From: a virus
Length of the DNA stretch: 64,000 nt
Virus record (IMG/VR): IMGVR_UViG_3300033186_000039
Location: 1-64,000 of that record
Strand: one strand, 5' to 3'
In this document: one piece after another, positions 8,536 through 64,000 of the stretch
Layout: the number at the start of each line of letters is the position of its first letter
How positions within the stretch are numbered: position 1 is the first letter of the stretch
The notes under the pieces: model-generated
Seen by the model: only the letters and a program-made list of their open reading frames with translations
Database searches by the model: none
What the model was told of the DNA's origin: nothing
Made by a program: the position numbers and the translations under genes

Positions 8536-9345
8536 TTACACCGCTACGGGTGCTTTGATGTGTGGGTGTGGGTCGTATCCGACGAATTCAAAGTCGTCGG
8601 GGTGGTAGCTGAAGATGTCCGCTGGTTGGCGTTTTATGTGTAGTTGTGGGAACGGTCGTGGTGCGCGCTGTAGCTGTAGTTTGGCTTGCTTAAGGTGGTT
8701 TTGGTATAGGTGGGTATCGCCAAGGCTGACGACTAATTCCCTGACTTGAAAATCGCATTGTTGGGCAATCATGTGGGTAAGCAGGGCGTATGAGGCAATG
8801 TTGAAGGGTAAACCAATAAATACGTCGCTGGAGCGCATGTAGAACAGTAGTGAGAGTTTGCCGTCGATGACGTAGCATTGCCATAGGATGTGGCATGGGG
8901 GCAGGGCGGCTTCGTCTAGCTCTTCTGGATTCCAAGCGGTGACGACGTGGCGGCGGGAGTGTGGGTTGTTTTTGAGTCCGCAAATCAAGTCTTCTATTTG
9001 GTCAATTGGAGCGATGCTACCGAAGTGTCGCCATTGATACCCGTATATTTTTCCTAAGCCACCATCTTCTTTAGCCCATGCATCCCAGATATGTACACCG
9101 TGGTCATTTAGGTATTTGATGTTGGTGTCCCCACTCAGAAACCAAAGTAGTTCGACGATGATGGCTTTAGTGTTGAGTTTTTTGGTTGTCAGTAGTGGGA
9201 AGCCTTGTTGTAGGTCGAAGCGTAGCATTCTGCCAAATGTTGATAGTGTGCCTGTGTTTGTGCGGTCGGCTTTTGATAAGCCGTTGTTAAGCAGGTCTTG
9301 TAGGATGTCTAGGTATTGTTGTTCGCCTTCGTTTTTTTTGTTCAT
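8536..9345 (-). CDS. thyA: Thymidylate synthase
   Basis: Motifs FPLLTTKK, ELLWFLSGDTN, GYQWRHF, TAWNP..LPPCH, GLPFNIASYALL and GDTHLYQNH. ATG at 9345 (MNKKNEGEQQYLDIL) fits ThyA N-termini better than TTG 9450. Confidence 0.92.
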   Translation of the reverse strand: MNKKNEGEQQYLDILQDLLNNGLSKADRTNTGTLSTFGRMLRFDLQQGFPLLTTKKLNTKAIIVELLWFLSGDTNIKYLNDHGVHIWDAWAKEDGGLGKIYGYQWRHFGSIAPIDQIEDLICGLKNNPHSRRHVVTAWNPEELDEAALPPCHILWQCYVIDGKLSLLFYMRSSDVFIGLPFNIASYALLTHMIAQQCDFQVRELVVSLGDTHLYQNHLKQAKLQLQRAPRPFPQLHIKRQPADIFSYHPDDFEFVGYDPHPHIKAPVAV

Positions 9346-9449
9346 GTGGCGTTTTAGGTCTTCTGCGGCTGGTAAGCATGAGAGATCTTGCTGGGTTTTG
9401 ATTTTGTGTCCCATAGGGTTTGCCTTGTAGTTAAAATAAATATTTCGCA

Positions 9450-9479
9450 ACGGAGACCGCCCCTAGGGGCGGTCTCCGT
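9450..9479. repeat. Perfect 30-bp palindrome ACGGAGACCGCCCCTAGGGGCGGTCTCCGT followed by AATCTTGTTAA
   Basis: Read directly. It lies about 105 nt 5' of the thyA start on the minus strand. Confidence 0.9.
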
Positions 9480-9537
9480 AATCTTGTTAATCCCATAGCC
9501 CGTTTTTTTTCCTGTGCGTTCCCTTTTTAACGAGGTA

Positions 9538-9789
9538 TTATTTTTTGTCCATTCCATAATCATAGATTTTCTGCCATTGTTCTAATGACATGTTATCCAG
9601 CCCTGCTGGCACATTATCTCTTCGCCATTCAGTGCGTAGCATCATCGCCTTTTGGCAGTAATCATCCACTAACCCCCTAACTGCAATGCGGTCAATTCCC
9701 AAAAAAATGGCAACTGCCGCCTCGCTCATTTCGCCATACGCATGAGAGACTAGAAGGGCGGTTTTTTTTTCGTGTTCGGTTAGTTTCAT
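9538..9789 (-). CDS. Small HTH-like protein (83 aa)
   Basis: ATG 9789 is preceded by GGAGATAAA. AAVAIFLGIDRIAVRGLV looks like a helix-turn-helix. Confidence 0.5.
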   Translation of the reverse strand: MKLTEHEKKTALLVSHAYGEMSEAAVAIFLGIDRIAVRGLVDDYCQKAMMLRTEWRRDNVPAGLDNMSLEQWQKIYDYGMDKK

Positions 9790-9802
9790 TTTATCTCCAT
9801 TT

Positions 9803-9832
9803 ACGGAGACCGCCCCTAGGGTCGGTCTCCGT
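9803..9832. repeat. Second copy of the 30-bp palindrome (one mismatch) plus AATCTTGTTAA
   Basis: ACGGAGACCGCCCCTAGGGTCGGTCTCCGT, between the stop at 9845 and the RBS of the 9789 gene. A third, degenerate copy is at 10242-10270. Confidence 0.9.
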
Positions 9833-9844
9833 AATCTTGTTAAA

Positions 9845-10225
9845 CTATGTTCGGAACTCTGGATGAGTGGCGGCATTAATCCCAATCCAAAGAAGTATTG
9901 CCTGCTGGCGGTTTAGGTCTGGGAACTGCTCAATAACTTCATCAACTGGAGCGAGTGCTGATTCGTGTTTGGCGTGAACATCCACCATCGCGTATGCTGC
10001 CTGTACGATTGGACTGCTTGATGATTGAGGCATGACTTCTATTGATTCGTCCCATTTCTTACCTAATTGAGCAAGGCGGTAAATTTCCTGCCAAAGGGAT
10101 TTTCTTTGCTTAAATGGCGTTGCGGCAGCGACTTCAATTAAGTTTGGCTCTCCGCCATTTTGCAGCCCTTCCAGAAAATCATGCGCAGCCTGAATGCCTG
10201 CTTGGTCTTCTTTTGTCTTGTTCAT
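9845..10225 (-). CDS. Hypothetical protein (126 aa)
   Basis: ATG 10225 (MNKTKED) is preceded by AAGGAAAACAAATGC. The upstream part of the track ORF overlaps the degenerate palindrome. Confidence 0.5.
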   Translation of the reverse strand: MNKTKEDQAGIQAAHDFLEGLQNGGEPNLIEVAAATPFKQRKSLWQEIYRLAQLGKKWDESIEVMPQSSSSPIVQAAYAMVDVHAKHESALAPVDEVIEQFPDLNRQQAILLWIGINAATHPEFRT

Positions 10226-32402: not shown

Positions 32403-33284
32403 ATGAACCACCTAGACCTATGCTCAGGCATCGGCGGCTTTGCATTAGCTGCAAGCTGGCTTGAACTCAACACCGTAGCGTTTTGTGAAATTGACAAATT
32501 TTGTCAGAAAATCTTACACCAAAACTTTCCCGATGTGCCGATTCATGGCGACATCAAACAGTTAGACGGCACGCAATACCAAGGACGCATTGATATTATC
32601 ACCGCTGGCTACCCGTGCCAGCCCTTTTCATTAGCAGGGAAGCAAAAAGGGCATGAAGACCCAAGACACTTATGGCCAGATGTGTTTGGAATTATCCAGC
32701 AAACCCAGCCCCCTTGGGTCTTGTGTGAAAACGTTGCAGGACATGTCAAACTGGGACTCGACGAAGTTTGCATGGACTTGGAAAGCCAAGGCTACGCCGT
32801 CGAACCGATTATTATACCGGCTAGTGCCGTCCAAGCTCCCCATCGACGCGAGCGCGTGTGGATTATTGCCTACGCCGACCGCTTCCGATGCGACAGTCGC
32901 GGCAATTATCGGCAAACAGGATACCATCGTGCAGAAGCCCAGCAGCGTATTGCGGCGTATCAACAAAACTGGCAAGGACGGCGGCTTGGGTTTGAGCAGA
33001 ACGATGCAAGTAGTGGAGATGCTACCAACCCCTTGTGCAACCGAGTACAAGGGTGTGAGCAAGAAGCGTTTTGTTGGCAGCCCACACTATCATGGAACAA
33101 AGACTGCCGAAAAGTTCAGGACTACACCAGACTGCCCGACCTACCTCAACCCCTACTTCCTAGAGGCGATAATGGGCTTCCCAATCGGGTGGACAGAACT
33201 AAAGGACTAGGTAACGCCATCGTTCCACAAGTCGCGTATCAGATATTGAAGGCGATACAGGCGGCGGATAAAGAGAAACTTTAG
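32403..33284 (+). CDS. dcm: DNA (cytosine-5) methyltransferase
   Basis: Motif I DLCSGIGGF, IV GYPCQPFS, VI LCENV, VIII QAPHRRERVWIIA and X GLGNAIVPQVA, all in one frame. Confidence 0.8.
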   Translation: MNHLDLCSGIGGFALAASWLELNTVAFCEIDKFCQKILHQNFPDVPIHGDIKQLDGTQYQGRIDIITAGYPCQPFSLAGKQKGHEDPRHLWPDVFGIIQQTQPPWVLCENVAGHVKLGLDEVCMDLESQGYAVEPIIIPASAVQAPHRRERVWIIAYADRFRCDSRGNYRQTGYHRAEAQQRIAAYQQNWQGRRLGFEQNDASSGDATNPLCNRVQGCEQEAFCWQPTLSWNKDCRKVQDYTRLPDLPQPLLPRGDNGLPNRVDRTKGLGNAIVPQVAYQILKAIQAADKEKL

Positions 33285-33349: not shown

Positions 33350-33952
33350 TTAATCATGCCGACTCATCACCATTACCTTGTTTTCAAAATCAAAACCAAA
33401 CGCCTTACGGAATGGACTGATCAGTGTTAAATCAATAGTCACTGGTATTCCTTTAAGGAGTGGTATTTCTTTAAAGCTGCTCTTATCTATTTTAAGAAAG
33501 GTATAAAAAAGAGAGTTTGGCTTGGCTTCAAAATAAGTATAACCAGCACCGAGCATGTCAGCCGCTACATCATCAAGAGATGGCGTTTTTAATATATTTG
33601 ACAACACTTTATGCTCTGCAAAATCTTGGCCTCGCCGGCCGTCATGGGCATAGCCTACTGAATGTATATAAAACACGTCACGGCTAAACTTAAAAAAAAC
33701 CTCGTATTCAACTCCTGCCCAGCAATCAAAAGAATAGAAAACCATCGGCTTAGCGTCAAGCACTTTTAGTAGCAGAGCGGACAAGTTAGCTTGACCTACA
33801 ACCTGTACATTTTTCACGTCGCCTTGCGTGACTTTGTATATTGCCTTTTCAATATCTAATAAGACCATTTCCGACAAATCACCATACCCTGCCGCCTTTA
33901 TTTTATCAATCAAACTATTCAAGTTTAAATCTCCTTGTGTTATTCCAAACAC
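33350..33952 (-). CDS. Hypothetical protein (200 aa)
   Basis: Its N-terminal LNLNSLIDKIKAAGYGDLS is shared with the 34428 gene. Confidence 0.55.
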   Translation of the reverse strand: MFGITQGDLNLNSLIDKIKAAGYGDLSEMVLLDIEKAIYKVTQGDVKNVQVVGQANLSALLLKVLDAKPMVFYSFDCWAGVEYEVFFKFSRDVFYIHSVGYAHDGRRGQDFAEHKVLSNILKTPSLDDVAADMLGAGYTYFEAKPNSLFYTFLKIDKSSFKEIPLLKGIPVTIDLTLISPFRKAFGFDFENKVMVMSRHD

Positions 33953-34173: not shown

Positions 34174-34428
34174 GTTTCCCCCTTCAGTAATACTGTTTTA
34201 GATCGATAAATGGTTTCATTTTTTTCTCCAAGAAAAGCTATAACTTCTACTTGTCGCAGCCACACCCATGTCCCGCGCAAATCTTGATGCGGCTTTGTTA
34301 AGGCTAAACGCTCTAAACCCAAACCGCCCATGCCACATATCACACTCCATGCGTCTAAGAAACTTAAAGGCAAATGGCGACAATTCACTATAACCTACCG
34401 CCTTGAATTTATCATTCAAACTATTCAA
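34170..34428 (-). pseudogene. Small gene readable only by combining two frames
   Basis: The frame starting at 34428 (TTG) has the paralog-like N-terminus NSLNDKFKAVGYSELS. The other frame supplies a protein-like C-terminus ending in an ATGA overlap with the next gene. Both frames are open over 34216-34388. Confidence 0.4.
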
Positions 34429-34442
34429 TTTTAAACCTCATT

Positions 34443-34792
34443 TTAAACCAAAAACGCTTTATATTTCTCACTCAACTCTTTTGGCTTTTCAACATCCTGA
34501 ACAACCAAATCATCAACATGATCCGCATCAATATTAACCACAGCAAACGTTCTCGCTGGCAGTTTTAACTCTGCAATCTCCGCATCACTCAACACTACCT
34601 TTAGCTCGTCAATATCAACACTGATACTGCCACCATCCAGCACAGCACAGCACAGTACAGCACAGCACAGCACAGCACAGCACAACCGGGTATCTGAATC
34701 TCAAACAATTCATCGCAAACCTCAATAATGCGAATAAGCGTTCTGAACATATCAGATTCATCCAAGTTGCGCCCTTGGTAGCGGGGTATCAA
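34443..34792 (-). CDS. Gene split by a pentanucleotide repeat (candidate phase-variable gene, currently out of frame)
   Basis: The upstream segment (TTG 34792 / ATG 34750) runs into the repeat and stops at 34601. The downstream 80 codons (to 34443) have no ATG, and the track start is a TTG inside the repeat. Confidence 0.5.
34638..34684. repeat. (CACAG)n microsatellite, about 9.5 units, one unit TACAG
   Basis: Read directly. Units start at 34641, 46, 51, 56 (T variant), 61, 66, 71 and 76. Confidence 0.95.
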
Positions 34793-34885
34793 AAGCGGCT
34801 TTAACGTCGGTGGCGTTCATGTTTGTCCTTTAATGTGTTTAGGAGTCCGCACCTCGGTGCGCCCGTCACGCCAAGGCGTGGACTC

Positions 34886-35152
34886 CTACTCAACCTCATC
34901 CAACAAAAACCTCGCCGCCACCCATCTCCTAAACACCGGGTTTTTAATTCGCCGATGCCCTGCAACCCATTCATAATGCAGCTTATCAGACACACAAGCG
35001 CGATGCACCACCTTATACCCTGCTGATTGCGTCGTGCCATTGAGTTCAGCGACAAAGTTCCCGCAATCGGTAATTGTCAGAATTGCTTTATTGGGTATGC
35101 GTATGTTTTCATTCATAAACGAACCACTGTTACCATAATACCATGAAAGCAT
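34886..35152 (-). CDS. Hypothetical protein (88 aa)
   Basis: ORF. Its 3' end overlaps the GGAGTCC..GGACTCC hairpin (34841-34887). Confidence 0.45.
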   Translation of the reverse strand: MLSWYYGNSGSFMNENIRIPNKAILTITDCGNFVAELNGTTQSAGYKVVHRACVSDKLHYEWVAGHRRIKNPVFRRWVAARFLLDEVE

Positions 35153-35274
35153 AGCAAATAAAATCCCATTCCCCCCATTTTTCCCGCCGAATTGTCAGCT
35201 TCTCTGCTAGTTTTGTCAACTGAAAGGAAAATATTGAGCAAGGACGCTCACTACCTCAAAAGGATTTTGACAAC

Positions 35275-37500
35275 ATGGCAGACCAATCAGAACAATTGAC
35301 CGCCCAAGCACCGGATGGTTCAGCAGCAGCCGTCACCGATTCATGGTGCGTAGAAACAACCAAAGGCGAATTGCCTACCGAATCACGTCGTCGTCGCTTT
35401 AGCACAGTCGCGGTCACTGACAAAATTACAGCCCCTGCTGTAGAAAAAGCTTTTGCAGGCTTAAAAGTCGGGCATCCGATTACCTTAAGCACAGGCTTTA
35501 CCGATGATGGCTTAGCCACCCGCATCAGCGCAATTAACACCTCTGGCGCAACCCACGAAATCACTGTTGCCGACAACATCACCGCCGACCAAACCGACGT
35601 GTTTATGACCTTGCAAGTCCCCGCGACTTTCCGTGCGATTTTACACGCGGGCGGGGCATTGAACTTGACCACTGAAATGAATACTGATGTGGGCAACACG
35701 GTTAATCAAGACTTGCAGCACAGCGGTGGTGTAGTCACATCGTTGGCGTATGAAGCCAGCGTTGAAGGCTACGTGCGTTTGAATACGCAGTGGTATGACT
35801 GTATGCGTAGCAACTTTGCTAGCTTATGGGTAGACCAGCACAGCGAAGTCATCCCCAGCTTAACTATTGCGCCTGTTAGTGGCGAAACCAGCGCGGTCAT
35901 TACTGGCCCCGATGGCTGGTTAGCCCAAGTGGTTGTCGGTACACATATCGTCCTGAACGGCATGGTGAAAAATCAAGGTCGTAACGATACACCATTATTT
36001 GTCAAAGACGTTGATACTACGGTATCGGGTCAACACAAAGTCACCATTGATGCGCAAATTGCATTAAGTGCAGAAACCGTAACCAACTCTCGCGTGATTG
36101 TTGGCGCATATCTGCGTAACGGCACAAACGTCACCACTATGACGTTAGCCCAAGATGCTGAACAAACCAGCACTTACCAACACGCGGTTAAATGCGTGGT
36201 CGCGGGCATCAGCATCACTGCACCACCTAAAGGTGAGCCTGTGTCCTGTAATGCGACATTTGTAACAGGTCCGGGTGATTGGAGTCCCCGCACCAGCAAC
36301 CCCAACGACATCGCCTACGATCCTCGTCCATTCCACGGCACGTTATTGTCAGTTGAAGATGCCAAAGTGTTGAACACGGGTAACAGCGTGTTCCGTATTG
36401 ATGCACTCGGTACACCATTGGGTAAAGGCATTCATTCCATTGGCGAATTCAGCTTTGAAACGTCTGACCGCTATGCGACTGAGCCACGTACCAAAGAAGA
36501 CGACGACATCAACAGCATCGCGGGTTATCAAAACACCGCCTTACGCACCCAAGGATTTTCGCCCACGGGTACGTTCATGTCCACGTTCACCAACTTCAAC
36601 GGCTTAAACACGTTCCTGACAGGCTGTTCTATTCATTTAGACCACCGCAGCGCAGTAAAAACCTGTGAAGACGGTACGCAATGGGTGGTTATCAGTCTGC
36701 CCGCCGCGCAAATCACTAACGTTGAAATCGGCGGTTCAGCGGTTGACGCAGAACGTGAAACCACACTGAGCTATAAAGCGAATCGTTGGGAAAACACTGA
36801 CAGCAACGGCAATGAGACTTCCTACTCGGCGCAAGTCACGGTAGCCGATGTCAGCACTTCGCCTGACTTAGTGTTCACTACCACTACCAACGGCGTGTGG
36901 GATTTGAGCAGCACAGCCACCGCGTCTTTGGGCTACTTGACCTACACCCTGAAAGACGGCTCAGGCACATTGCAAGCACAGTCTTACGGCGGTAACGGTG
37001 ATTTAACCACTGACATCGACGCAACAGGCAATGCAGGCGGCGACTGGACGTTAAACATTGACTACGCGGGCAACATCGCTACCTTGGATTTAAACACCCA
37101 ATTATTGACAGGCGCAATTCCAAGTGCGTTGAATGAACTGATTGAAGCGACTTCAATCAACTTGGCTGATAACGCCTTCACCGGCACTGTCCCCGACTTG
37201 GATGCGTTGGTCAACTTGACCTTATTGAACCTGTCAGGCAACAGCTTAGACGGTATCGGTAAACTGCCTGACTTATCTAAAAACAATGCGACGATTGACC
37301 TGTCAGACAACGCTTTGTCAATCGGTGAAGTCAATGTGGTATTGTCAAAACTGGCAGCAGTACAAGCCTGTACTGAAACTGGCATCATCCAATTGGACGG
37401 CACTAACGGCATTCCCGATGCGTCCACTGGCGGCGTAGACGGCACAGCCGCTATCGCTACCTTGACTGGTCGTGGCTGGACAGTCAACGTCTCAAGTTAA
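35275..37500 (+). CDS. Large virion protein with C-terminal leucine-rich repeats (receptor-binding / tail fibre candidate)
   Basis: 741 aa. N-terminal LKVGHPITL...INTSGATHEITV domain. LRR-like LxxLxLxxNxLxG units from 37084 to about 37420. Confidence 0.6.
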   Translation: MADQSEQLTAQAPDGSAAAVTDSWCVETTKGELPTESRRRRFSTVAVTDKITAPAVEKAFAGLKVGHPITLSTGFTDDGLATRISAINTSGATHEITVADNITADQTDVFMTLQVPATFRAILHAGGALNLTTEMNTDVGNTVNQDLQHSGGVVTSLAYEASVEGYVRLNTQWYDCMRSNFASLWVDQHSEVIPSLTIAPVSGETSAVITGPDGWLAQVVVGTHIVLNGMVKNQGRNDTPLFVKDVDTTVSGQHKVTIDAQIALSAETVTNSRVIVGAYLRNGTNVTTMTLAQDAEQTSTYQHAVKCVVAGISITAPPKGEPVSCNATFVTGPGDWSPRTSNPNDIAYDPRPFHGTLLSVEDAKVLNTGNSVFRIDALGTPLGKGIHSIGEFSFETSDRYATEPRTKEDDDINSIAGYQNTALRTQGFSPTGTFMSTFTNFNGLNTFLTGCSIHLDHRSAVKTCEDGTQWVVISLPAAQITNVEIGGSAVDAERETTLSYKANRWENTDSNGNETSYSAQVTVADVSTSPDLVFTTTTNGVWDLSSTATASLGYLTYTLKDGSGTLQAQSYGGNGDLTTDIDATGNAGGDWTLNIDYAGNIATLDLNTQLLTGAIPSALNELIEATSINLADNAFTGTVPDLDALVNLTLLNLSGNSLDGIGKLPDLSKNNATIDLSDNALSIGEVNVVLSKLAAVQACTETGIIQLDGTNGIPDASTGGVDGTAAIATLTGRGWTVNVSS

Positions 37501-61900: not shown

Positions 61901-64000
61901 GGGCTAAGTGGCATGAGTGGTGGTCTACTAAGTGTTGGTATGTCACTTTTCAGCGGTGATATAACGGATGCAATCAGTGGCTTAGGCGGCATGATTGGAC
62001 AGGCATTGATTCCTATACCTGTGTTGGGCGGCATGATTGGTAGCACGGTAGGCAAGTTTATCGGCGGCGCATTCAGCAAAAAACAACTGTCTGGCTATCG
62101 CATTGAAAGTACGCTTGGCGGACGATACGGCACTAATTACGGGCGTGAATCTAACCGTAATAACGAGGACGGTATCAAAGCATCCAAAGAAATGACCCGT
62201 AATGGCAACAAAGGCTATTATGGCAATACGGAAGAAGCGATTGCGCCAATTGAAGCAGCATTGCGCGACTGGAACGAGGCAATGAAAGTTAAAATCGGTG
62301 AACTTGGTGTTTTCGTGGGAGAAAGTGCCACCGCATTTACCGAAACGGTTTACGACGGCTTTGAGCAAAAACTAGACATCAAAGGCAAGTCCGTAGAAGA
62401 AATTGCACAAAAAGCCGAGCAGTGGATGCAAGAAACTCAAGGTTTATTGCTGTCACGCGCTGCTAGCGTTATGGACTCATCAAAACTCAACGTCGTTGAC
62501 AAACTCATTGTTGACGCATTGAAGGCCAGTGAAGGTGATTTTGAGTCCGTGCAGCCTATTATTGAAAACCTTAATGCGCTCAGTGTCGCTTTTCATAAAT
62601 TAGGCTTTTCCAGTGACAGCATCAGCCAGGCATTAATCGACAATGCAGGCGGTTTAGATAATTTACTCAGCAACTTAGACCTTTACTACAACAGTTTCTA
62701 TTCACAAGAAGCCAAAGTTTTAGCGCAGATGCGCGTCATCCGCGAGACAATGCTGGATACTTTCAAAGGCATTTCCAAAGGCCTTGACCAAGGTTCGTTA
62801 GAACTACCAGAAACCGCCGCTGAATTCCGTAAGACTATTGACGCGGTGATGAAAGGCGAAACAGAACTCAGTGAAGTGCAAAAAGGTGCGCTACTGAATT
62901 TAATTCCTGTTGCCAAAGAATACTATCAACTGACAGAAAGTGCCGAAGACGAATACACCAAGAATATCTTAGGCGAGTCTGCTTATCGCCAACGCGAAGT
63001 TGAAAAAGCCACCAAACAAATCAACACCATATTTTCTGAAATCGGGCAGCCGATTCCGCAAACCAAGGCTGAATTTGAATCATTGGTGCGCGAAATAGAA
63101 CGCACTCAAGGCGTCAACAGTAGCGCCGCCACTGCATTAAAATCGGTTAGCGGCGTATGGCTTGATTACATCAATATAACTGGTGGTTTAAGCAGTGATT
63201 TATTCACGGTTGAGCAGGGTTTAAATACATTCCACAACCAAATCATGAGCTTGGGCGACGCGTTGACTGCCAGCAATATTGCCAACGCCTTTACTGTTGC
63301 ATTTGAGAATTCCGCCAATCGCTCCGAGTTCGGGAAAAACTTCGCCCAAAACGTCGAGCAGCAAGTCCGACAAGCGATGCAAAACGTGATGCTAAACACG
63401 GTATCGCAGATGGTCATGCAGGGGATAGTACAACCGATGCTGCAAGCGCAGCAATTGGTCATGGCGCAAGAATTGGAAGCAGCAGGCGTGAAATCCAGCA
63501 TGGAATTGGATGCAGCCGTAAATGCGGCGAATATTGACATGCAGGCTTCCACTAACGCAGCGAATATGACGCTCAATGCGAAAACCCAAGCGTCAAGTAT
63601 GGCGGTTAATAGCGAAGTGCAGTCCAGCACAGTTGAGATGCAAGGCGCACTGACCGCCGCACAAATATTGGCAGCAGGCGGAGAAGAAGCAGCGGCATTT
63701 ATTGAAAATCAAATTGATAACATATTAGCGACGGTAGAAGTAATGACGCAAGTCATGGGCGATGAGCGCATTGAAGAGGCGATGTCAAAAATGATGCCCG
63801 GACTGGAAAAAGTTGGCGCAGCAACGTATGACATGATGAAAACCACGCCTATCACTGCGCCAATTGTGCAGCAAAACGAACAACGCATTCAAATTGACCG
63901 CGCTAAAGAGGCGGCTGACCGCGCTAAAGAAGCGGAGGAAAAAGCTGAACAAGCGAGAAAAGAAGCTGAACAAAGAAAAATTGACGACGCCAAAAATACC
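43997..64000 (+). CDS. Giant tape-measure-like protein, 5' complete and 3' truncated by the window end (>6,668 codons)
   Basis: ATG 43997 is preceded by an in-frame TGA at 43982-43984. No stop occurs in this frame to 64000, confirmed by spot translation at 14 places and by the absence of any closed + ORF in the track. It contains a TMP core, PHS.A.QG..NL motifs, an SLT domain and Gly-rich segments. All listed ORFs from 43960 to 63973 are shadow ORFs. Confidence 0.85.
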   Translation, partial: MAEFDARLEVEIDGKQAIKESKQLDKALDSAADSADKLSKAAERAQQRLERQAKAQERLAKQMVAMQKQMEQMGRIAKMVEMAKNMERMANAFGNNTAAKSIKDLNANLAQTTKHLNAVTKAAKQADTALTKSLSKTAGGNLPSVNVKQSVSIDTGNLKKTSGEVKQLGDNLTVTTAALKEFRGEFKATEQELNAVGEAQAKYRQETKETEEESKSAAASMAAMGVAAVQNRQHIAALAVSMHGLASTTRLLAGASVLTGIFGNLNTILAALFVTLDRIADLFNWVTRGLQAMGAKAIEFARNIDFSQISVANFVAMLKTAGAGIAAFIQSLSFDKIKGFLLWLMTSAAAGIRTAFTATLGFLKDFHNDIKDTSLSDAFKKRLNPALETTRANVGKLSNELRSNGKAAFNNAGNGVRKFKQDVDKASHSTSVGEVSLKKWIAQIALIGGAVAAALVGIRALVSEFGNIVETGKEFTEAIAGVAATKNINLNTKDGQAQLQALSDKARELGQDTVYSAKKSADAMNFLALAGFETNQILEGTPAVLDLAASTTTDLARSSDIASDLMTAFGKSVEELPEVVDTLAKVTSTANTNLEQFFESAKYSAPVATGLGISMHEVAGAIGILADSGVKASQSGTSVRQSLLRLAAPPKMAKDALEELAGAMSDTEFDQFKQGAAQAQGTLKSLGIEIEDSATGNMRPYADILNDIRVRMNDMGMSTVKQAEILKKIFGVNAASAMQILVQSTGRAEKSLQSYTESLRDNDGVAKQMAKTRLDNLAGDIKLMDSAAYELRLTIFDMLEPALRQMTQTSTASIIALTDTIKTLQRIFAPLLPILSALITPFVQLFTILNNLKNAVLTIAGLIAEYLILGLIDGLSPLLNTLHAVHGALLTAFEPLSTALQPVFEVIFRIYAALTNLNKTANGTNSNFIQIAGTAHFLGRIIGSGLYLTIDGLAKLLIVLIDLLGAGIRAFEQLGIAVGEGMGYLHTEVKPVWNFLTGFVQGLLSYSKLLDKAIASIAGGLVYILSPLVKASPALQTFEATLGSITVSLSSGGKTIQGAFSPLEDLIHPLLGLFAGLSNAIQGLGQNLNAWESAGYSAGQMLIGVLIYPLTAITRLVPAAVESIKLAVASLVLLGKTIGIVAGALHMFAQQGLGGLQPLHDSMAQMAQAFYSLFKDINFYAIIEFHRQAVVKQLAKLIEQDIYGTLSAAFASLPTQLSGDVKYAIGGVAWSIADSLVQALDQVTDIVFISGIHLLLAFSDGIESGAQALFDRIDGVFEWVYSLLFPHSDAKQGAFANLTASGYALVVAFSDGINDAAQWLYNTISKVFSFSANLFLTDDQLHGALTPLVKLGEVAHKQLEKLSTTLRQGLQSAFNPSNLNLEQGLSYLALYIGVELVNTVVVGLTQFVNAFDNLSANVIGMIAHFFIDITNAITQQQSLFTTLSNLTANLTQTLSQFTNELVFNFELVFIGLLVGVSQNVIAAIGKFLQQVTKSLLKHKAIKELVKTFAQFGSLIGKAAQGLFFGLGKSAIILARTLEDEFPIVSIWTRYLTGTLSQIQWQTQWFFAQQFATFKGLWVGNLELIRQFIKAYAVIDFAKIILSVLLPVEAGKKGIRYNINKLRISFTYNLKNFYDSINNFAKRQPVIWNIFLKQVDDFALRIAKVMPALGRELVKQTPYVVASIRGLLDVFTFAFPRNARLLTFLIENTIIQPLEHFAKSLNIQLIRIAQGSMWAQFWKSLDVAFKAIPTIFSVILKQIPTLTNLFSHLTGRFFQFVTALNQFDVLLRNTFKISLPLFFLLSESVIKLIWHFDEISSHWDEFVGLFEEGTANLATAWGFFMEQLSTPEGLQNVMRLASAFMMLSPVTALLGTIVFILSFFPERITPIIHWLQAMGDTYSEQINRIKQTTYEFITFLPQALNTLMSMDSEQIFTGIGNQIKRLKDDYPAFAALFDGTVYIIKILTSAVIGLAAAFAAINFGAPVAAAFAFGAAISSGLFYLLEFQQAVEQTWTELSQAQKKLVKTFGIEIVALSLGILISPIIPLIIGLTRVTYAFRDEISTLTSYIKDLWENSLIFRGVVLGLATALGALALSLVGTATAIAISSSAVMTLFGMGLGAIASYHDEVMWVFDSITLGVTHFVAAITAPFSGLIAWFDYLFGTDMYANALDFFSGLEDIILMALGASLIALTAWVAKWIWAMKRVVTAKAQANKLISQNPVLMAFGIDQKQVEKNIRQGATQANHILENAFAGKNCKSLGNCIESGTKYGVKSATKQSRGFLSKLFKPSSISEQISRGVTDGVKKGVKESQSLSKGFLRGGINFDSKNAEGKMVSLLNDINKLNNQINALSGESRKYGKTVALGTLEEDSVKGRRLTNRTKLLDDVYDDDVANRLLKTTMEQNKLNEKDRKALADIHDKIQTKGKISRADQMEVHRRIYQYHQYAADNDLAKAKEVAAIQKRGYIEVDKAGAVRVQQIKTEQRILRAQLKAAKSEYDNIRNAMDLEGQRYLNRLIKQGAHRGLSEQEVLAKNADKIQKKFAKIYTQAARPPRLSFSGMFESWFKFWDKALPWIGKKLKKFSGWSLLSKSFKRVFGGMFNWFGKHNPFAWMSKTFSEQLGKMKAAWKDAGIREALTKHEMRKMSPKKPAFLQESFSRDTVNINHPEQLTSLKSTLKDDKKIIAERKASAIQLQRKIAEIAQQEAQQRAQNAKAAESVIQQNAKQHQAVMMQARQQQDIARQQIALAKEADKARTMAISDYQQHQAKFNQQSIEAETNHKAALSKLDSDYLIGYRKKTMELALANKNLTQDAKVEIAQQLKAHTNAYYTELGNLEQASAARYQRESALFIKHLDTATEARASALANQKNIQIWELDEAGNKRQTDAYRKLRQQTEQQLINDFHLSQKAWKPMEQETLKQRYLGKMQTTAVLNNRFAAEELQMLDLQHQNRIDTQRNQYQQELKLMHQHIADKEKLLKKSIGDDADQIIQTTRGSTPSAIAPQKNAIVAQQQVIKEINLQRKNLEQINDNLKFDIQHITRGAGQESAVRGILGRDADEDEIRKLLTPRGLEKQAEQRVLSQGKLTKDSPKFYKAVAAMTQDLEAALGENAKSVYAMNKQIAENNHAQKQLGESVAIYKRQLKEDIANLRKLSPESFAKGGAIRFSETDDNVLTTRSQLEAQAQKYTPADIGGMRQTVAGMPDADYLAEQSAQLRHEAEVAQRAQQDLLKNQASYNSKAQAIDLDHRSHLADLNDEYLANLRKTTATHIANDTSSSQASRKQSLKHLSEYHKQYEEEMQKAEERMTHRTRREAALLLETLDTQTQTRAIDIAGQRGVNMYELDDQGIQRETKAFIKIQKEAEQHILNDFQLRDAAYREAERQAVADRYDARITNLAARHDSYTQAQVQLFKQNHADIMRTQEALHQDELRAINAHYQAKQDKLTSQLSDTQRGQIVIPELKEVDHVKHQKRLVAGYEEVVRELQLQRNHLGRLNKDIGNQKLHIPSVQYTDPAIQRWLGDSASKEQINAFLSPEGVEKQARKMTPGTADSDKFNKSLATTMKEIKDSLSPNAKLIYELNAQKLGNQRQQKELDEAISKYKKEISDNTKALKKLSPDSFHRGKLDLSQVDPTTNYRRADLESVAKLHERDKSYPSFKADDMDTELTQPRTSQQMLASLESAIHSLRNSFAFLETSAQKAAVELSHVGKDFKTPYWVSADKQITARQKKITEIYTEIGEDLKGANRKSTKELQTLSAKIGSSLTQSQTFFADMAKAGNDITDAQRKQLKAANDTLKYQKSIIDSVKRSKEAQAEINKQTAMRAQGEKGTYGKLNDATKNITAQIDANQKLINQIHQGNVGLNNAQRKELILKQEYLKEIRSQTQKLSSDIQNQQPAAKAKQRIPVPKGQRGFVDTSLPPIKDWPVYKGYEKLKGKIQAVGEQAKATTRHIATMGKQLTVSQKAVKGMAIAVKGLVLSMSFVGGMALGFAAEMALMFAFQWVMENWDDIVLKWENIWYTLQKTFSTTKNNIISTWEQVKTYLNANLGFDGFSYGAALIKTFVQGILSKGGEIWGAIVALFTQYITPLMPHSPAEQGPLSNLLIWGEMLIVTLAEGIRSASHVLVESLFWVFSYLLTLVPQQAQAVAGGFLLAFGQRLTENDVKLFDGVADGLYAVLAIEMQRVFGMNNPVVNMVKNFMLTIGGLLNSLPEPVRNMSKALIVELSAITFLPKILEISTATIIKFSNALRTIYELVPSLSKPFALLGSKLTDLSAAFKNIQNELNFTQWVSRQVVTPLTHAYRVVQSFAQGVSEFAQSFSDSWKNTAEPIRKLVKGLSTDMGVLLIATMAFGAVPAMYIALAVAVGKAAYAFKDELYGAIMAVVDWWDSLSDTNKMLITITVSIASVGLALKALIPIIALAFKLTPLQLWAARLSVLFTLISTFSTEIKAAAQWLTDFFTNPLQPAQSMTDLLARFGVGITAVVVAYKLLSTTIFMGNAAISTAIGMYKLWLVQTQAQTAATGALATATKLLKVSLGLLLVAFAAFELGKLIAEMEWWQQQSDLVKASIIGLTAVLTASYVTWRLMPTIMTAWRVATTALSAAKSVLATRLIAATLLVSSYSASTKLAVIATNTMAVASRAAGVALAVLASPITLTVAAVAGATAALVLLYQHLDDVREFINSQWAGLGTLLTAPIEAIGDMVINTGTAIGEAIGAISTGQFSDLGGIWANSLIGGFNIFGELLYNLITGAFTMLTGIEMPAWENFNPFTGLWETANQQVIKIRVSFGQFVQWALREMASLMVYSSRVAFFLGKGDDMIEGAQVLRNAANAIGRDNRKLLEENAKGIPDAIASGISQNAHKVADETEKMMNAADKKLPHSLPVEGDMASADGGGIPAAIGEQIAVNGHKISDALEGVMNNAAMQLSGEQVKAVAKAGASQISDAVGMLGNLDFKAALDQTKQALEQASIHLMLGKIAAGAELTKDSLDTLSLDQLKKLQEEAANLSKEQAKEGANAISMAASQNVVMLNEFVKQKEQLAAEAKQGSTDLMTQMTTDVKDMSTQAQKFFRKIKGEIEEIREKTKNVGLNEDKIRLRDLEESMKNGSKAWVSWFDTKGIPEEQAQVELKKMKLMVAQKAIEAENLRLKEEQNKLVTEEEKKREYINSLLKDGTEEQRKQVAEMKAREAQIKEVQKQREAEKKAAQEITQAQEGLTKALADSQLALQTAQMTELEKERLQLKQQYVKLNDAESKQMLAQLIANKEQAKIQKALFDAKQATLFAGMTDAQKEFYQLTKEIGKENAAIVAQERVKADIIKKTRDLQTKIDTMGMSDAQKQRYEFEQQYGEALGANVKQFAEQYEKTLQMIASQKELAKVREQLYAAGMNAKQREYFELMKQVGVETADQIIREKELAAQRQAGQEKIDKLQHEIDLKTKLTAQERERYELIKDVAPEQWDQVVALDTQKKALEENNKQWDSAIDKAGDYWGKMASGQMDFDDGFKGMVKDLQQSFQQQLADQAKAEFKALFGIGDNGAQLDNEEIMNKMSSSLDENIKTAAKAYDDYTQRVENATNDAGDKMAQAIDKLQSGLKDALSTLNTGVAAAVTEGVEKARKVTNSDVNFAPVERGKADYNQNEIINIVGSTAQQHGIDPVDFIKFAKVESNFNERAQASLSSAKGLFQFVDSTAKQYGIMGKQFDPFENANAAAELYKDNLKTIKKLQGEVKDMDVVDMYLMHQQGVGGYNKLSKVADGAGNFNASQRKNLINNAHGDLRSQMPQMDDTTLANAFIDYWKQRFDAIQLPEIDGKPLEVAVQQQSAATQASVQSTQMQSQAAQMSASAQAQTAQAAQMNATAQSQSAVAISQAAQFMITTGGAIASKVSSAMGGIAGAAQRMTSGKGGIVGAINGLFGGSSGGDAAAKAAQASSTGFFSSIGDFFSGIKSNVSSFFSPITDAVKGFSSTVKSGINSITESIGLGEVFGSSGLSGMSGGLLSVGMSLFSGDITDAISGLGGMIGQALIPIPVLGGMIGSTVGKFIGGAFSKKQLSGYRIESTLGGRYGTNYGRESNRNNEDGIKASKEMTRNGNKGYYGNTEEAIAPIEAALRDWNEAMKVKIGELGVFVGESATAFTETVYDGFEQKLDIKGKSVEEIAQKAEQWMQETQGLLLSRAASVMDSSKLNVVDKLIVDALKASEGDFESVQPIIENLNALSVAFHKLGFSSDSISQALIDNAGGLDNLLSNLDLYYNSFYSQEAKVLAQMRVIRETMLDTFKGISKGLDQGSLELPETAAEFRKTIDAVMKGETELSEVQKGALLNLIPVAKEYYQLTESAEDEYTKNILGESAYRQREVEKATKQINTIFSEIGQPIPQTKAEFESLVREIERTQGVNSSAATALKSVSGVWLDYINITGGLSSDLFTVEQGLNTFHNQIMSLGDALTASNIANAFTVAFENSANRSEFGKNFAQNVEQQVRQAMQNVMLNTVSQMVMQGIVQPMLQAQQLVMAQELEAAGVKSSMELDAAVNAANIDMQASTNAANMTLNAKTQASSMAVNSEVQSSTVEMQGALTAAQILAAGGEEAAAFIENQIDNILATVEVMTQVMGDERIEEAMSKMMPGLEKVGAATYDMMKTTPITAPIVQQNEQRIQIDRAKEAADRAKEAEEKAEQARKEAEQRKIDDAKNT
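45500..45950 (+). other. Tape-measure core region (TP901/TIGR01760-like) within the giant ORF
   Basis: LSDKARELGQDTVYSAKKSADAMNFLALAGFETNQILEGTPAVLDLAAST..DIASDLMTAFG...VVDTLAKVTSTANTNLEQFFESAKYSAPVATGLGISMHEVAGAIGILADSGVKASQSGTSVRQSLLRL. Confidence 0.75.
60842..61200 (+). other. Lytic transglycosylase (SLT-like) domain within the giant ORF
   Basis: AKVESNFNERAQASLSSAKGLFQFVDSTAKQYG...AAAELYKDN...MYLMHQQG. The catalytic E-S is at 60938, and the GLFQF..T motif starts at 60986. Confidence 0.75.

Follow-up and report, generated by a model that had tools for sequence, protein, structure and literature searches.

A (CTGTG)n tract between two coding stretches of a small phage gene: a candidate slipped-strand switch, caught out of frame

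Stochastic on/off switching of genes by slippage of simple repeats is a textbook bacterial strategy. Whether a phage gene may be controlled in the same way is the question raised by a pentanucleotide repeat found in the window analysed here, that is, the whole stretch of 64,000 nucleotides forming positions 1 to 64,000 of the IMG/VR virus record IMGVR_UViG_3300033186_000039. An initial annotation, based on the letters of the DNA and its open reading frames, had proposed that the repeat splits a gene and that a change in the number of units would restore it. Taking together the tract, the coding signal on its two sides, the neighbourhood and the known repeat switches, the reading that we favour is a slipped-strand contingency locus in a small phage ORFan gene, caught out of frame, to which we assign a probability of roughly 0.45.

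The repeat was delimited as follows.

34638-34684, minus (coding) strand: pentanucleotide tract of 47 nt, period 5, 9.4 copies with 95% matches (Tandem Repeats Finder)

This agrees with the count of about 9.5 units of (CTGTG)n given for the minus strand at the same place in the initial annotation. In the coding sense the tract reads TGTG (CTGTG)4 CTGTA (CTGTG)3 CTG, with the variant base at 34656, and it is flanked by CTGCCACCATCCAG and CAACCGGGTATCTG; on the plus strand the unit can be read as CAGCA, CACAG or GCACA. Interrupted by the variant CTGTA unit, the tract keeps perfect runs of 5.6 and about 3.6 units. It is genuine and lies far outside what chance would produce, as its longest perfect period-5 run covers 28 nt, compared with a maximum of 16 nt in 200 shuffles, and no other microsatellite of the 64 kb window has a unit above 1 nt. 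Whatever the frame, its translation is a hydrophobic (CAVLC)n peptide. The tract sits between two coding stretches and, since its unit is not a multiple of 3, each unit gained or lost shifts the reading frame.

The reading frames that meet at the tract are these.

34601-34792, minus strand: present-state ORF, composed of segment B, the tract, an out-of-frame tail (CWMVAVSVLILTS) and a stop; 63 aa from TTG 34792
34685-34792, minus strand: segment B (..LDESDMFRTLIRIIEVCDELFEIQIPG), coding stretch upstream of the tract, read in the same frame as ATG 34750
34443-34637, minus strand: segment C, 64 codons and a stop (DGGSISVDIDELKVV...KAFLV)
34443-34685, minus strand: downstream ORF of 80 aa, with a TTG at the tract edge

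ATG 34750 shares its frame with TTG 34792, and the product of the present state measures 49-63 aa, of which about 27 at the C-terminus form a hydrophobic stretch (maximum hydropathy of 2.63 over 19 aa). Segment C is instead acidic, with a net charge of -8. The geometry originally described, in which the upstream ORF enters the tract and ends out of frame at 34601, was found again. The downstream 80 codons were likewise confirmed to be open into the tract, while the statement that a TTG is their only start did not stand, as GTG codons within the tract are also possible starts. Indeed, removing 5 nt or adding 10 nt in silico joins the frames of B and C without internal stops, which gives a protein of 100 aa from ATG 34750 or of 114 aa from TTG 34792, close to the length of about 110 aa that had been expected upon the loss of one unit or the gain of two. 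The opposite edits (+5 or -10 nt) join C to the other upstream frame, the one that starts at ATG 34761.

The coding signal was evaluated by a codon-phase model trained on the long genes of the window, which recovered the correct frame for 224 of 237 control pieces, each 25 codons long, as well as by a six-phase model.

34446-34637, minus strand: segment C as a whole, coding margin +15.4 to +23.5
34593-34637, minus strand: first 15 codons of segment C, abutting the tract, margin +6.55 against a wrong-frame 95th percentile of +0.34
34685-34750, minus strand: segment B (MFRTLIRIIEVCDELFEIQIPG), 22 codons, margin +5.0 against a wrong-frame 95th percentile of -0.81
34685-34792, minus strand: segment B in the six-phase model, margin +3.0, with +1.0 for the antisense, which has no start codon
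34686-34760, minus strand: frame-1 ORF from ATG 34761, margin -4.2
34604-34636, minus strand: out-of-frame tail of the present-state ORF, margin -2.6

Thus, segments B and C are both coding, in different frames, and the coding part of C begins at the tract. The objection that the region may be non-coding, which the initial annotation had itself put forward, is contradicted by these scores for the two flanks. Because the signal of segment C starts at the tract boundary, translation must come through the tract; the tail that follows the tract in the present state is not a selected reading, given its negative margin. Two other arrangements were discarded, namely the frame-1 ORF from ATG 34761 as the true upstream reading, on the basis of its coding score, and a gene on the plus strand that would use GCACA in the coding sense as mod genes do, which has no start codon and scores below the minus strand.

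The possible starts are of unequal quality. Segment C has no credible start of its own, only weak TTG and GTG codons in the tract, whose SD energies range from -2.7 to -2.8 kcal/mol as compared with a phage median of -4.1. Among the candidates for segment B, TTG 34792 has no SD, TTG 34765 is preceded by an AAGGG (-4.2 kcal/mol) and ATG 34750 has an SD of -3.1 kcal/mol. Together with TTG 34765, a leader ORF had been missed in the initial annotation.

34758-34820, minus strand: leader ORF A (MNATDVKAAFDTPLPRAQLG, TGA stop), 20 codons from ATG 34820, in the frame of segment C

Its SD, AAAGGA at 34826-34831, is the best at the locus (-5.3 kcal/mol). In windows of 8 codons the margins of the leader frame run from +5.6 to +3.0 over 34820-34800 and stay positive for about 12 codons, and in the six-phase model the leader signal is weak (+0.8). 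The coding signal passes from the leader to the B frame at about 34795-34785 with no stop/start pair, and a T4 run (34794) and a C4 run (34786) sit at this hand-over. Removal in silico of 1 nt and one repeat unit generates a single clean ORF of 123 aa. The leader is thus either the original N-terminus of the gene, cut off by a 1-nt change at T4/C4, or a short upstream ORF coupled to B. A gene broken twice, at the tract and near 34790, would favour decay; since TTG 34765 overlaps the stop of the leader, this can equally be a separate, coupled upstream ORF.

The window was already considered phage DNA in the initial annotation, which is borne out by its gene content: a large terminase, a Mu-like portal, a head protease, a ribonucleotide reductase, DnaN and a C5-methyltransferase are encoded. 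The phage contig measures 130,708 bp, its TerL is at most 35% identical to that of any deposited phage, and blastn of the window against deposited phages returned no DNA match. DnaN is closest to proteins of uncultured Gammaproteobacteria MAGs (46-48%). This is a novel large phage, and its host is probably gammaproteobacterial. Rfam and tRNA scans of the window gave no matches. An ORF that opens at ATG 43997 on the plus strand stays open past the end of the window at 64000, with at least 6,672 codons inside the window; in the gene table of the matching Logan contig its product has 8,234 aa. The C5-methyltransferase gene (32403-33284) contains a nested ORF of 185 codons in the +1 frame (32653-33210, plus strand), which matches the same alternative methyltransferase frame in 87 deposited phages (34-36% identity, E down to 1e-16). 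Paenibacillus phage Harrison (172 codons) and Lacticaseibacillus phage R23.9 (203 codons) have this frame open as well, and its common motifs are CLELSSK, LTWK, LLPTPTASD and EWLMGFPIGWT. The nested ORF covers the gap between the main-frame motifs VIII and X, the expected place of the target-recognition domain and motif IX, and it is either a conserved overlapping gene or part of a methyltransferase made by two frame changes.

The tract locus belongs to a run of small ORFan genes on the minus strand, which consists of an 88-aa gene, a hairpin, the tract locus and genes for 72, 77 and 190 aa.

35191-35219, minus strand: sigma-70-like promoter TTGACA-17-GACAAT upstream of the 88-aa gene, recognized by its match to the consensus
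34842-34886, minus strand: strong RNA hairpin, located after the stop of the 88-aa gene and ahead of the SD of ATG 34820, dG -37.2 kcal/mol, z = -4.6

As judged from its sequence and position, the promoter probably drives an operon of the 88-aa gene, the tract locus and the 72-, 77- and 190-aa genes. The hairpin is unique in the window, was not called by the terminator search and matches no Rfam family. Lacking a T-tail, it is not a canonical terminator, and it could be an element of RNA processing or stability. Downstream of the locus on the minus strand, a 65-nt direct repeat (33872-33936 and 34378-34442, 85% identity) makes the RBS, the TTG start and the opening 17 codons of the 190-aa gene recur in front of the 72-aa gene; the body of the latter lies in another frame than the duplicated start and has its own strong SD at GTG 34388. 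The repeat has probably been left behind by recombination or duplication involving the small genes. Divergent from the locus, a protein of 741 aa is encoded on the plus strand (35275-37500); its C-terminus is leucine-rich-repeat-like (LNLSGNSLDG, IDLSDNALS), and the protein could act in host interaction.

The length of the tract in the assembly deserves attention, as a miscounted repeat would create the same picture. Every k-mer of at least 25 nt across the tract is unique, thanks to the CTGTA unit, and therefore a de Bruijn assembler cannot collapse, expand or mis-size the tract; a collapse in assembly is ruled out on this ground. The JGI/IMG contig of 130,708 bp and the Logan assembly of SRR14108926, obtained by two different assemblers, are identical base for base, and the Logan copy, the sole other copy of the locus, carries an identical tract, though the two copies may come from the same reads. 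The ORF of more than 6,600 codons (20 kb), RNR, TerL, portal, DnaN and MTase are intact, the gene that neighbours the tract locus needs no frameshift, and the (AGTG)6 found where TerS meets TerL marks a normal stop/start boundary with no indel damage. General indel damage of the assembly was also excluded, as the C5-methyltransferase aligns over its full length in one frame. Artefacts of assembly and general indel damage were thus set aside, based on the unique k-mers and the intact long genes nearby.

Homology searches place the gene on its own. Among about 15 billion proteins, neither the segment C gene nor the 741-aa neighbour has relatives beyond its own copies; for the gene, a word-indexed search of 5.8 billion clusters and an exhaustive HMMER search of 1.84 billion representatives returned the locus itself and one weak PKD-repeat protein. 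No reading of the gene matches Pfam or PHROG. Segment C, the flank sequence and the 741-aa neighbour retrieved no related loci from IMG/VR, and the flank-gap-flank pattern, with any tract length allowed, was found neither in IMG/VR nor in metagenome contigs. The weak match of segment C (library-wide E = 2e-4) is to a protein of nine K319L-like PKD (Ig-like) repeats; residues 10-57 of the segment match six or more of these repeats in register and correspond to profile positions 44-91 of 102, in the second half of the domain. The K319L-like PKD model PF22352 gives no Pfam match to the gene even at E = 10, and the likeness is therefore a resemblance and not membership, so that segment C is possibly Ig-like as far as this alignment goes. 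Should the resemblance be real, a full PKD-like domain would call for some 43 further residues at the N-terminus, of which the fusion offers 45 and the 80-aa ORF only 25. For the fused protein, AlphaFold2 run on the single sequence gave no usable model (pLDDT 46).

Close parallels to the tract are found in bacteria. GCACA[n] is an experimentally proven phase-variation tract of the Type III mod methyltransferase genes, in which fragment analysis and Western blots have shown switching: in Actinobacillus pleuropneumoniae, modP and modQ turn ON or OFF at 9-25 units, tracts of 4-48 units occur across Pasteurellaceae and Gram-positives, including Mannheimia, Haemophilus ducreyi, Streptococcus and Lactobacillus, and the unit is regarded by the authors as particularly expansion-prone (PMC10123105, PMC5909438). 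GCACA is a cyclic permutation of the unit of the present tract (CAGCA/CACAG), both tracts lie in the 5' part of a coding region and have a unit that is not a multiple of 3, and the 9.4 units counted here fall within the range of 4-48, albeit with one CTGTA interruption. The differences are equally clear. The mod genes are bacterial methyltransferases that read GCACA right after the ATG and whose switching has been demonstrated, whereas the phage gene, a candidate for switching, is an ORFan with no similarity to methyltransferases that reads CTGTG in an interrupted tract at least 22 codons past the nearest start. The locus is thus not a member of the GCACA[n] mod phasevarion genes. Another viral contig (IMG/VR UViG_3300025683_000079, locus L012) carries an in-frame (GCACA)8 at 1729-1768, in the middle of an ORF of about 470 codons with an NPPY methyltransferase-like motif, which resembles the known repeat-containing mod genes. 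A further parallel is offered by the (CTCTT)n coding repeats of Neisseria opa, located in the signal-peptide region of bacterial outer-membrane adhesins: as in the phage gene, a pentanucleotide encodes a hydrophobic stretch that tolerates changes in length, and the length controls only the frame downstream, although the unit is a different one and the products are adhesins of the bacterial outer membrane.

For phages, the initial annotation had held such a design to be rarely reported, in accordance with the literature searched, where the sole report found is a 2025 preprint limited to homopolymers and no paper on multi-nucleotide repeat units in phage genes was found. In the preprint, T2 agt and T4 rIIA are described as contingency loci, defined by homopolymer runs of at least 6 nt and supported experimentally, at read level and by phenotype, and an enrichment of SSRs is noted for hypothetical genes (Gomez, Barrick and Waters 2025, bioRxiv 10.1101/2025.10.21.683753). 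The present locus shares with them a repeat within a phage coding region, which in agt and rIIA undergoes hypermutable, reversible frameshifts with a proposed role in bet-hedging. However, those runs are homopolymers with read-level and phenotypic support, while here a 5-nt unit is repeated 9.4 times, a design that lies outside that study and its definition and for which the support comes from sequence.

A scan of IMG/VR for (CACAG)6 retrieved 34 stretches of DNA, about half of which represent one siphovirus gene family. Its members (loci L004, L006, L015-L017, L019, L020, L022, L023, L025-L029, L032, L034 and L046-L076) come from contigs of IMG/VR and of metagenomes, at least two of which carry the label human-gut metagenome, and are placed after the tail module and next to the lysis cassette, between the two. 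The architecture consists of an SD, an ATG, 2-7 codons, (CACAG)n, LRRR[LM][LM] and an interchangeable C-terminal domain of 95-130 aa, as in the following example.

9442-9924 of IMG/VR UViG_3300029388_000248 (L015): gene headed by (ACAGC)15

In the same stretch an adjoining paralogue (8872-9426) carries (GTCA)11 at 8897-8941 after ATG 8872, followed by LRRRMM, so that two adjacent genes are headed by different SSRs. Tract lengths range from 17 to 75 nt over the 30 loci of the IMG/VR and metagenome scan that could be scored, and the frame states divide as follows.

8 of 30 loci: in frame with the SD-proximal ATG
13 of 30 loci: an alternative ATG at -14 is the only one in frame
9 of 30 loci: in frame with no ATG

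In particular, L019 and L027, whose flanks are 99% identical, have tracts of 40 and 45 nt and differ by one unit and an adjacent TA. The presence of all three states and the one-unit difference indicate that the CACAG pentamer slips in phage genes in nature, and the family, judged by its sequences, looks like a genuine multi-gene phase-variable system in phages, for which no description was found in the literature searched. It shares with the tract locus the pentamer within a coding region of phage genes. It differs in that the coding sense is CACAG (TAQHS), opposite to CTGTG, in the position of the tract 2-7 codons after the ATG and ahead of LRRR[LM][LM], and in being unrelated in sequence to the window gene; when B, C and the neighbouring proteins were compared with the family loci by tblastn, there were no matches. 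By sequence, the tract locus is not a member of this LRRRLL family.

With these elements, the working of the proposed switch can be outlined. Translation from TTG 34765 or ATG 34750, possibly coupled to the leader ORF at ATG 34820, would read segment B; the ribosome would then read the repeat-encoded hydrophobic (CAVLC)n, run out of frame and stop at 34601, releasing a peptide of 49-63 aa. Slipped-strand mispairing during replication, with one unit lost or two gained, would place segment C in frame and give a protein of 100-114 aa, and a third product, a short one, would result from the gain of one unit. In this way the tract would behave as a heritable, reversible three-state translational switch and, on paper, the locus would work like the mod and siphovirus families. 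As the gene and its neighbours are database singletons, we infer the switching, and with it a useful rate of slippage, the fused protein as the functional form and selection for the change of state. The interruption of the tract, with a longest perfect run of 28 nt (5.6 units), should make slippage less frequent, and the only two copies of the locus, which may stem from the same reads, have an identical tract and thus say nothing about variation. The broader proposal that phages use penta- and tetranucleotide coding repeats as true contingency loci, with (CTGTG)n as a three-state form convergent with the GCACA of mod genes, is put forward more tentatively still.

Other explanations have to be weighed against a contingency locus. 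The one that we take most seriously, even if we consider it rather unlikely, is that the gene was recently inactivated: the expansion of the tract by one unit, perhaps with a 1-nt insertion at T4/C4, would have broken an A-B-C ORF of about 123 aa, leaving the tract as a mutational accident or as a fossil switch that is stabilised by CTGTA and no longer in use. The passage of the coding signal from the leader to the B frame in the absence of a stop/start pair and the clean 123-aa ORF obtained by removing 1 nt and one unit point in this direction, as do the CTGTA interruption and the fact that this ORFan is surrounded by small genes that look dispensable, with a duplication of 65 nt close by. 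However, B and C have accumulated no stop codons and lost no codon bias, the leader signal is weak in the six-phase model and equally fits a coupled upstream ORF, and phage genomes tend to purge dead DNA. Less probable than decay is a pair of independent small genes, where B with the tract would be a tail-anchored peptide of 49-63 aa, C (76-80 aa) would start at a TTG or GTG in the tract, and the repeat would encode hydrophobic segments of both proteins, so that switching would be unneeded. The 76-aa ORF called from GTG 34673 by the gene callers of two pipelines and the strongly hydrophobic tail of about 27 aa in the present-state B product agree with this arrangement; it is at odds with the non-ATG starts and weak SDs (-2.7 to -2.8 kcal/mol) inside the tract and with the non-coding score of the B-ORF tail past the tract (-2.6). 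Moreover, a 47-nt repeat serving as two overlapping coding regions is not parsimonious, and a PKD-like C would lack about 43 N-terminal residues that only the fusion supplies (45 versus 25), a weak piece of evidence.

It is quite improbable that the true or majority genome is in frame and that the assembled length is wrong or represents a minority allele; repeat tracts are classic sites of length errors and the two assemblies may share reads, but the uniqueness of k-mers of at least 25 nt across the tract, the agreement of two assemblers and the freedom of the 20-kb ORF and several long genes from indel damage argue against such an artefact. Even more remote is translational recoding, by which the ribosome would restore the frame on the repeat, through, for example, a +5 hop of peptidyl-tRNA between identical CUG/GUG codons or a -1 shift, and the fused protein would be made at some level from unchanged DNA. 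In the B frame of the repeat identical codons do lie 5 nt apart, and short forward hops in E. coli were reportedly described by Weiss, Dunn, Atkins and Gesteland (1987); yet hops of the +5 type are normally very inefficient, no stimulatory stop or structure adjoins the tract, and a programmed -1 frameshift site was ruled out, since no X XXY YYZ slippery heptamer occurs in any phase from ATG 34750 to the frame-0 stop.

All in all, the slipped-strand contingency locus remains the reading that we prefer. The fact that the window phage is a database singleton limits the value of this locus; the multi-state tract variation of the gut-associated siphovirus family strengthens the case for contingency loci in phages. 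Repeat switching has only just been claimed for phages, for homopolymers only, and a pentanucleotide tract would extend it to the classic high-rate contingency type. The finding also calls for caution in annotation, as genes split at such tracts may be switched-off states rather than errors or pseudogenes. If the proposal is true, the tract switches what follows a hydrophobic segment, namely a short hydrophobic tail, a short stub or an acidic domain that may be Ig-like. Collectively, the tract locus and the siphovirus family suggest that phage populations may hold a pre-existing heterogeneity of accessory, possibly surface-exposed proteins.
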